Of a DNA stretch of 64,000 bases, positions 3,428 through 16,097 are shown piece after piece. Numbering within the stretch: the first letter of the stretch is position 1; each line of letters opens with the position of its first letter. The position numbers were made by a program, and so were the translations under genes. Source of the stretch: Escherichia coli (lineage in GTDB: Bacteria > Pseudomonadota > Gammaproteobacteria > Enterobacterales > Enterobacteriaceae); NCBI RefSeq assembly GCF_001677475.2, contig NZ_CP015229.1, one strand, 5' to 3'. The notes below the pieces were generated by a model. That model saw only the letters and a program-made list of their open reading frames with translations. It ran no database searches and was not told where the DNA came from.

Positions 3428-4564
3428 TTAACGTGCCGGATGATGAACGGCGTTAAAACCCAGTTTACACAGCAATGATGCCGCACTGGCGTCATCACAA
3501 ATTACATACAGAGATGACCATTCACGGCGCTCAAGATAGTTTTTGCGCAGTTTATCGAACTCACCCGGTATCCCGGCGACTTTACGCAGCGGTGCGTCAT
3601 CGCGTCGCACATCATACACCAAATGCACCAGCCTTTTCAGCGTCGGTTGATCGAGCGGACCATGCAGCGTAATGCGGCCAAACTCTGGCGCGGGCAGCAA
3701 CGTATCCAGCGCAACGTGTTGTTCATGCCCAATAAACTTGCTATAGGCTTCAAACACTTGCGTCGTGCCACGCGCTTTACCTTCCAGGGTATAACCTGCG
3801 ATATGCGGCGTGCCGATATCCACTTTTTTCAGCAGCTCGACGTTGAGTTCTGGCTCGCCTTCCCAGACATCCAGCACTACGCTTAACTGCTGGCCTTCAT
3901 TCAGGCAGGTCAGCAGCGCAGTATTATCGACGACTGCGCCACGGCAGGCGTTAATCAGAATCGCTCCCGGCTTCAGGCTACGGATCAGTTTTTCATCCGC
4001 CAGATGCAGCGTTTTGTACGGCCCGTCTTTGAAGAGTGGCGTATGGAAAGTCAGAATATCCGCATGCTGAACTAATTCATCCAGCGAGCGGAAATCACCC
4101 TCATCCCCACGGTCAGCGCGAGGCGGATCGCAAAGCAAGGTTTTAATCCCTAACGCTTCCAGTCGCGCCTGCAATCGACGTCCAACGTTACCAACGCCCA
4201 CGATCCCCACCGTACGGTTGTGCAGTGAAAATCCATCGCGTTCGGCAAGCATCAGTAGTGAGGAGAGAACATATTCCACCACCGCAATCGCATTACAGCC
4301 TGGTGCCGCAGAAAAACCAATTCCCGCCTGCTTTAACCATGCTTCATCGACATGGTCGGTCCCCGCTGTGGCAGTACCAACAAATTTAATGGGTTTTCCT
4401 GCCAGCAAAGATTCATTCACTTTCGTGACCGAACGCACCATCAGTGCATCCGCGTCTGCCAGTTGAGCGACGGGGATTGGACGCCCGGGAACCGCGGTCA
4501 CCTCACCCAAACGGCTAAATAAGTCGCGGGCATAAGGCATATTTTCATCAACAAGGATTTTCAC
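3428..4564 (-). CDS. pdxB: erythronate-4-phosphate dehydrogenase
   Basis: 378-aa [25 protein letters not shown]...; D-2-hydroxyacid dehydrogenase GxGxxG (GIVGVGNVG). Confidence 0.93.
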
Positions 4565-8420: not shown

Positions 8421-10493
<2,073 letters not shown>

Positions 10494-10499
10494 TCAGCT

Positions 10500-10610
<111 letters not shown>

Positions 10611-15328: not shown

Positions 15329-15880
15329 ATGAAAAAGAAAACAACACTCAGCGAGGAGGATCAGGCACTGTTTCGCCAGTTGATGGCGGGTACTCGCAAA
15401 ATTAAGCAGGACACGATTGTCCATCGTCCACAACGAAAGAAAGTCAGCGAAGTGCCGGTCAAGCGGTTGATTCAGGAGCAGGCGGATGCCAGCCATTATT
15501 TTTCCGATGAGTTTCAGCCGTTATTAAATACCGAAGGTCCGGTGAAATATGTTCGCCCGGATGTGAGTCATTTTGAGGCGAAGAAACTGCGCCGTGGCGA
15601 TTATTCGCCGGAGCTGTTTTTGGATCTGCATGGTCTGACGCAACTTCAGGCCAAACAAGAGCTAGGCGCGTTGATTGCCGCCTGCCGCCGTGAACATGTA
15701 TTTTGCGCCTGTGTGATGCATGGTCACGGGAAGCATATTTTGAAGCAGCAAACGCCGCTGTGGCTGGCGCAACATCCGCATGTCATGGCGTTTCACCAGG
15801 CACCGAAAGAGTATGGTGGCGACGCGGCGTTGCTGGTGTTGATTGAAGTGGAAGAGTGGCTGCCGCCAGAATTGCCCTGA
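15329..15880 (+). CDS. smrB: Smr-domain protein (ribosome rescue endonuclease)
   Basis: 183-aa [27 protein letters not shown]... with Smr core LDLHGLT...HGHG. Confidence 0.9.
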
Positions 15881-16097
15881 ATGACAACAACCGGATATAG
15901 AATTTGCAGGTCGGATAAGATGCGCCAGCATTGCATCCGACAAGAAATGCCGGATGCGGCGTGAACACCTTATCCAGCCTACGCAAGACTGAATGACAAC
16001 AACCGGATATGGAATTTGTAGGTCGGATAAGATGCGTCAGCATCGCATCCGACAAAAAGTGCCGGATGCGGCGTAAACGCCATATCCTGCCTGGGCG
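15878..16097. repeat. tandem duplication of a ~112-bp REP/BIME-containing unit (2 copies, ~90% identical)
   Basis: Copy 1 at 15878-15989 and copy 2 at 15990-16097 both begin tgaatgacaacaaccggatat and contain paired REP cores (cggataagatgcg ... gccggatgcggcg). Confidence 0.8.

Follow-up and report, generated by a model that had tools for sequence, protein, structure and literature searches.

The 217-nt spacer between the convergent genes smrB (plus strand) and a yfcO-like adhesin gene (minus strand) was found to be occupied from stop codon to stop codon by a tandem REP array, which as a whole is, with good confidence, a two-unit atypical BIME filling the convergent spacer, with a long linker that is probably L-derived. 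All coordinates refer to the window, that is, the whole stretch of 64,000 nucleotides that was analysed. The array is an ordinary REP/BIME of a well-described family; the locus and the linker variant are new.

The smrB gene (15329..15880, plus strand, 183 aa) was recognized as an open reading frame with a match to Pfam Smr (E=8e-22), and its orthologues are annotated 'endonuclease SmrB'; its stop codon TGA is at 15878-15880, and the array begins at this codon. The yfcO-like fimbrial adhesin gene (16098..16964, minus strand, 288 aa from ATG) was recognized in the same way by a match to Pfam DUF2544 (E=3e-66); its stop codon lies at 16098-16100 on the minus strand, its E. coli orthologue is annotated 'StfH/YfcO family fimbrial adhesin', and fimbrial subunit genes come after it. 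The exact YfcO-like protein is present in NCBI assemblies having a spacer of identical length (217 nt), and it is carried by 86 blocks of the public collection, GCA_016118665.1 and GCA_018428365.1 among them. With its position between the two stop codons the array has the extragenic location (typically in a 3' UTR) of REPs. As a separate observation, sequences residue-identical to the 183-aa SmrB protein of the window are indexed in 25,751 blocks of a public collection, and the DNA of ten such copies that were checked was about 94-95% identical to the window; purifying selection on SmrB is very strong. The yfcO-like gene (16098-16979 of the window) is hypervariable, with 82-87% identity where smrB has ~99% and aroC/prmB 95-98%, which suggests that the yfc fimbrial operon is under diversifying selection or recombines in a cassette-like manner. 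Further along the window, an argW-like tRNA-Arg gene (anticodon CCT) was located at 33454-33528; in E. coli, prophages and islands classically integrate at this tRNA.

Tandem Repeats Finder reported a single array at 15877-16092 (period 112, 1.9 copies, 90% matches, no indels, score 362), and a repeat search returned copies of 104 nt at 15877-15980 and 15989-16092 (90% identity, offset 112). In pairwise alignment the two copies were identical at 94 of 104 positions, or at 97 of 112 when extended to the yfcO stop codon; the right edge of the repeat is fuzzy, and the final 8 nt before that stop codon match at 3 positions. An earlier note on this DNA had described a tandem duplication of ~112 bp with ~90% identity, placed between smrB and the yfcO 3' end, and had proposed comparing the region with itself as a check. 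This comparison revealed the second copy and the periodicity of 112 (the best ungapped diagonal within 15700-16300 scored 74; in 200 shuffles the mean was 8.6 and the highest score 12), so that the duplication was borne out by repeat finder, alignment and shuffles alike, and its placement by the open reading frames and Pfam matches given above. The coordinates proposed for the copies (15878-15989 and 15990-16097) were right in location and off by 1-5 nt at the ends. The two-unit structure was found again in L095 (100% identical), L096, L003 (a complete chromosome) and L093 (a metagenome contig); since independent assemblies have the same structure, the array is no assembly artefact.

Each unit consists, in this order, of a linker of 29-35 nt, a z2-type REP, a 7-nt linker and an inverted y-type REP; one inverted REP pair per copy, as the earlier note had it, is thus what the array contains. 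Unit 1 starts with a 29-nt L-like linker copy (CTGAATGACAACAACCGGATATAGAATTT, 15877..15905, plus strand), which overlaps the smrB stop codon and is identical to 15989-16017 at 27 of 29 positions; read as the reverse complement, it is collinear with the L linker of BIME-1. REP1 (15906..15941, plus strand) is of z2 type in REP orientation, has GCAG instead of GTAG at its 5' end and aligns to the Z2 half of naRNA4. It is followed by the 7-nt tail-to-tail linker AAGAAAT (15942..15948), the counterpart of AATAAGT in the ybhC-ybhJ BIME-2 unit, and by iREP2 (15949..15982, plus strand), an inverted y-type REP with an intact 3' CTAC and an exact match to the y-REP pattern. The two units are joined by the 35-nt head-to-head linker GCAAGACTGAATGACAACAACCGGATATGGAATTT (15983..16017, minus strand), which is L-type-like, diverged and inverted, with a 6-nt insertion. 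In unit 2, REP3 (16018..16053, plus strand) is of z2 type, has its 5' GTAG intact and matches the z2 REP of the ybhC-ybhJ BIME-2 array in E. coli at every position; the tail-to-tail linker is AAAAAGT (7 nt, 16054..16060), and iREP4 (16061..16094, plus strand), an inverted y-type REP, has CTGG instead of CTAC at its 3' end and stops 3 nt short of the yfcO stop codon. The GTAG/CTAC tetranucleotide is accordingly kept in the inner pair (iREP2, REP3) and lost in the outer pair (REP1, iREP4). All four elements are imperfect palindromes of 34-36 nt, within the 20-40 nt of REP palindromes, and each folds with a stem. Single REP pairs fold at -31 to -44 kcal/mol, and the RNA fold of the region compared with shuffles gave z = -4.5 (plus strand) and -5.1 (minus strand). 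A simple scan for terminator-like sites (GC-rich hairpin plus U tract) gave none in 15877-16100 on either strand, and a simple scan for promoter-like sites gave none inside the array.

When the array was searched with BLAST against 5426 complete E. coli genomes, dozens of matches per genome were obtained, solely over query positions 33-223 (the REP parts). The top matches were in the ybhC-ybhJ spacer, which holds a canonical BIME-2 array with a 92-bp period and a copy number of 2.1 in one strain and 3.1 in another. Identity to the ybhC-ybhJ unit is 72 of 77 positions for the REP pair of unit 2 and 69 of 77 for that of unit 1; together with scores above the gathering threshold of Rfam model RF02564 (given below), these figures support the earlier identification of the repeat as REP/BIME. 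Like BIME-2 arrays (ybhC-ybhJ; REP325 at yjdM-yjdN), the smrB-yfcO array has z2 REPs alternating with y iREPs, short tail-to-tail linkers (7 nt, AAGAAAT/AAAAAGT) and multiple head-to-tail tandem copies (1.9-2, period 112) that are well conserved within the locus. It differs from the ybhC-ybhJ array in having only two units and in its period, 112 instead of 92 bp, the longer period being due to a head-to-head linker of 35 nt, against 15 nt at ybhC-ybhJ; the linker sequence is also different and resembles L instead. A further difference from BIME-2 is that the outer GTAG and CTAC are degenerate. BIME-2 and atypical BIMEs are both described as occurring in tandem copies with conservation at the level of the locus and with linkers variable in length and sequence, and atypical BIMEs as multi-copy chimeras of y, z1, z2, L, S, s, l and r motifs (PMC3333891). 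Since y, z2, a short linker and an L-related linker are combined here in two copies, atypical BIME is the best label, with the difference that the combination and the linker sequence had no extended match in the 5426 complete E. coli genomes. A second BIME was observed in the window at 10510-10596, just downstream of a long open reading frame (8427-10493); it consists of an inverted y-type REP, an 8-nt head-to-head linker (GGTAACAT) and a z2-type REP.

The flanking genes were used to place the window. Identity over aroC-prmB-smrB was 94.0% to K-12, 93.4-93.8% to E. whittamii and 90.2% to E. albertii, and none of the 5426 complete RefSeq E. coli genomes was above 95% identity to the window in the smrB part. 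The closest species representative was CP089930.1 (labelled E. coli E69), with 96.1% in aroC/prmB, 99.3% in smrB and 95-96% over the flanks, and the locus was carried at 100% and 99.8% identity by GCA_016118665.1 and GCA_018428365.1. Judged by these identities (~94% to K-12 in flanking genes), the window is not from E. coli proper; the lineage is probably a cryptic Escherichia clade. Two units were present in all six sequences carrying the unit, namely the window, L095, L096, L003, L093 and L094, the last of which has its contig end inside unit 1. The suggestion of the earlier note that copy number may differ between strains was therefore not confirmed for the window allele, and it holds for other BIME arrays (smrB-yfcO alleles described below, and ybhC-ybhJ). 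Seven differences between the copies are common to the window, L003 and L093, whose lineages are 2-5% apart in aroC/prmB, and the duplication is therefore older than the split of these lineages. In the window lineage, unit 1 carries four further substitutions, three of them in REP stems, and unit 2 carries none. In L094 (1-180), the partial unit 1 was seen to have unit-2-type bases at three sites; either the two units have undergone gene conversion, or this is an artefact, the contig starting inside the repeat. Window and L003 are 98.2% identical in the array and 99.3% in smrB. The possibility that the array is under purifying selection was considered, since conservation seemed higher in the array than over the locus in general, and dropped, as region-by-region counts gave a conservation no better than that of smrB (array divergence 1.8-2.3%, smrB 0.7-1.3%).

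Across Escherichia (window compared with L001-L011 and L083-L092) the smrB-yfcO spacer was found in at least seven architectures unrelated to each other, and in most E. coli strains identity to the window ends exactly at the smrB stop codon. In K-12, the comparison suggested in the earlier note, the spacer has 70 nt with one GC-rich hairpin and no REP; L083 has the same ~70-nt type. L001 and E. albertii have other hairpins, L084 a 125-nt sequence without REP, E. whittamii one y REP, L011 and L086 a y REP plus a ~40-nt insert, L089 y-L-z1 (BIME-1), and L091 y-L-z2-y; L085 is built like L091 with a 79-bp L+z2 unit in 1.9 copies. The tandem L+z2 unit of L085 set against L091 implies that BIME copy number varies at smrB-yfcO in E. 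coli, not in the window allele. From these comparisons the spacer is a hotspot of REP/BIME turnover. An unrelated GC-rich hairpin in the spacers of K-12 and E. albertii also means that some 3' hairpin is present in most lineages. It was further observed that in L011 (3550-3620, Escherichia sp. E1V33) and L086 (3053-3120, same SmrB protein) the ~40-nt insert after the smrB stop codon ends in a second copy of the last bases of smrB (GCCCTGAATGCTG), followed by the y REP, a further rearrangement at this point of the locus, and that the single y REP of E. whittamii (L004, about 3590-3600) is also 3 nt from the yfcO stop codon, as in the window (16094-16100). A REP abutting the yfcO stop codon is thus a feature that recurs across different spacer alleles.

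With regard to the origin of the array, a single unit would have been amplified in tandem before the lineages split, either by replication slippage or unequal crossing-over, or by strand transfer by TnpA_REP (RAYT). Within inverted REPs TnpA_REP cuts at CC|TAC, and within linkers at C|T, at times a long way from where it binds; it assembles tandem BIMEs in vitro (PMC3333891). The unit boundaries of the smrB-yfcO array lie on C|T (CCC|TGAATG and AGAC|TGAATG), a dinucleotide that is too common for the boundaries to decide between the routes. The array resembles REPINs in that the REP pair is an inverted doublet and the boundaries are on the minimal cleavage signal C|T (PMC3333891), and in that pair 1 on the minus strand folds as one long hairpin (-43.7 kcal/mol); it differs in that two of the four REPs are without the GTAG required by TnpA_REP, and no RAYT gene was seen near the array.

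What the array might do can be proposed from its family. The convergent transcripts of smrB and yfcO would both end in stable REP hairpins, which may block 3'-to-5' exonucleases and so stabilize the transcripts, and may also serve as bidirectional, partial terminators that depend on Rho; in addition, the y/z2 DNA may provide a gyrase-binding site where the positive supercoils of convergent transcription collect. REPs have been described as stabilisers and partial Rho-dependent terminators; a REP lies between the genes of about 30% of convergent pairs in E. coli, with higher expression of these pairs, and nearly 40% of the REPs between convergent genes lie within predicted bidirectional terminators (bioRxiv 10.64898/2026.03.23.713779). 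Binding of gyrase, IHF and Pol I by REPs has been reviewed (PMC3333891), where binding and cleavage of BIME-2 by gyrase are cited from Espeli & Boccard 1997. That the array is a REP/BIME was observed directly, and by analogy with its family a stabiliser, partial terminator and gyrase role is likely. As a further effect, the y REP iREP4, 3 nt from the yfcO stop codon, may lower YfcO translation. According to Liang, Rudd and Deutscher in 2015, REPs within ~15 nt of a stop codon reportedly make terminating ribosomes stall and reduce expression; the distance between REP1 and the smrB stop codon is 25 nt, outside this range. None of these effects on smrB or yfcO is likely to be essential.

The strongest competing explanation treats the array as neutral selfish DNA in decay: a remnant REPIN/BIME, amplified on one occasion and drifting since then, with no effect on its neighbours. 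Several of the results above are in its favour: the outer GTAG and CTAC are lost, unit 1 has four lineage-specific substitutions and unit 2 none, the divergence of the array (1.8-2.3%) at least equals that of smrB (0.7-1.3%), K-12, E. albertii and many E. coli strains have an unrelated spacer, sister lineages replace the spacer as a whole, and the simple scan gave no terminator-like or promoter-like site in the array. The loss of GTAG/CTAC, the drift of unit 1, the replacement of the spacer and a conservation no better than that of smrB would all fit neutral selfish DNA equally well. Against it, the two-unit state has been kept across lineages 2-5% apart, neither collapsed nor expanded, and genome-wide, convergent genes with a REP between them tend to be more highly expressed; neither point is decisive. 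We regard neutrality as a serious possibility, though somewhat short of an even chance.

A further functional proposal goes beyond the family-based role. Here the array would be a regulatory boundary, maintained at exactly two copies over lineages 2-5% apart because of its function, combining a bidirectional terminator with a gyrase site, with iREP4 throttling YfcO by ribosome stalling and the C|T edges as a TnpA_REP footprint. If this were true, a conserved smrB block would be separated from a hypervariable yfc adhesin cassette, and the C|T edges would be the footprint of a TnpA_REP-driven amplification reaching into the smrB stop codon. Taken as a whole, this combination is improbable.

The long linker bears both on the label of atypical BIME given above and on a rival reading, in which the array is an IHF-binding element of BIME-1 type (RIB/RIP, y-L-z1 plus IHF site) and the linker recruits IHF. 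A 39-nt probe across the unit 1 leader gave no match at E <= 10 in the 5426 E. coli genomes, a search in which matches of at least ~21 nt are detectable. A 26-nt linker pattern occurs only twice in the window, and in a metagenome-wide scan a 24-nt pattern was found in two contigs only, both at the smrB-yfcO locus. The reverse complement of the linker shares AAATTC[C/A]ATA with all four L linkers examined, and contains GTTGTCATTCA, a match of 11 of 11 to the L linker at the same locus in assembly L091; the score of this block was reached in 8 of 20000 shuffles. The two blocks are collinear with the L linker, with 6 extra bases between them. The long linker is thus probably a diverged, inverted BIME-1 L linker, as indicated by these two short blocks of 10 and 11 nt. 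Two other accounts of the linker were set aside. The first, in which it was a unique local sequence copied by plain segmental duplication including the smrB stop codon, is weakened by the two collinear L-linker blocks; since the block TGAATGACAAC of the L-like motif contains the smrB TGA, copying of the smrB stop codon by the duplication is not secure. The second was an inversion of L via the flanking inverted REPs, which would have explained the y-like z2 stem; both stem arms are y-like, and the same variant occurs at ybhC-ybhJ.

In favour of an IHF-binding BIME-1, the REPs stand head to head, the linker of 35 nt is in the length class of L, its reverse complement has two L blocks in L order, and AAATTCxATA and GTTGTCATTCA are common to L linkers, including those at smrB-yfcO in some E. 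coli. However, the linker is inverted relative to the y/z REPs and carries the 6-nt insertion between the blocks, and its closest approach to the IHF consensus WATCAANNNNTTR departs from it at 2 positions, both within the conserved CAA core, whereas the L linkers at the smrB-yfcO locus of E. coli L089 and L085 have 1 mismatch. The partner REP is of z2 type (36 nt, with a GCGTCAGCATCGC core), not z1, and two tandem units are present, unlike the single copy of BIME-1 (PMC3333891). The array therefore has neither the y + z1 composition, nor the IHF-bearing L linker, nor the single copy of a BIME-1. IHF binding, which the earlier note had suggested for such arrays, is not predicted for smrB-yfcO, and a BIME-1 type element recruiting IHF is distinctly unlikely.

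A reading as a pair of naRNA4-like genes (nucleoid-associated small RNA, HU-binding, chromosome condensation) could be based on the Rfam matches. On the minus strand the REP pairs of unit 1 (15909..15979) and unit 2 (16021..16091) scored 62.4 and 66.5 bits against naRNA4 (RF02564), both above the gathering score of 59.5. RF02564 is a covariance model built on the y/z2 REP pair of REP325, and the alignment covers the Y and Z2 halves. The ybhC-ybhJ units reach 72-78 bits against the same model, which means that RF02564 detects generic y/z2 pairs and gives no evidence of a small-RNA gene. The locus is moreover smrB-yfcO and not REP325 (yjdM-yjdN), the array has no promoter-like site in the simple scan, and a 2026 preprint finds REP325/naRNA4 without measurable nucleoid compaction (bioRxiv 10.64898/2026.03.23.713779), so that naRNA4-like genes at this place are very unlikely. 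The notion that the repeat encodes real small proteins can be dismissed: the two minus-strand open reading frames starting MSDAML(A/T)HLIRP do exist (15662-15943 and 15783-16055, 93 and 90 aa), and they are spurious, as the earlier note had held, because neither matches Pfam and both lie antisense across smrB, with TTG starts inside REP stems and a common N-terminus that is translated REP.

In annotation the array should be masked as REP/BIME, which would keep the MSDAML frames from being called as genes and the naRNA4 matches from being taken for small-RNA genes. Contigs of short-read assemblies are also likely to break at the 112-bp repeat, and contig L094 starts within the array. Beyond annotation the array itself matters little. 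The smrB-yfcO spacer is a further documented case of BIME turnover, and its variability fits the published view that BIMEs are a main source of intergenic polymorphism and could tune the behaviour of 3' UTRs without any change of protein.
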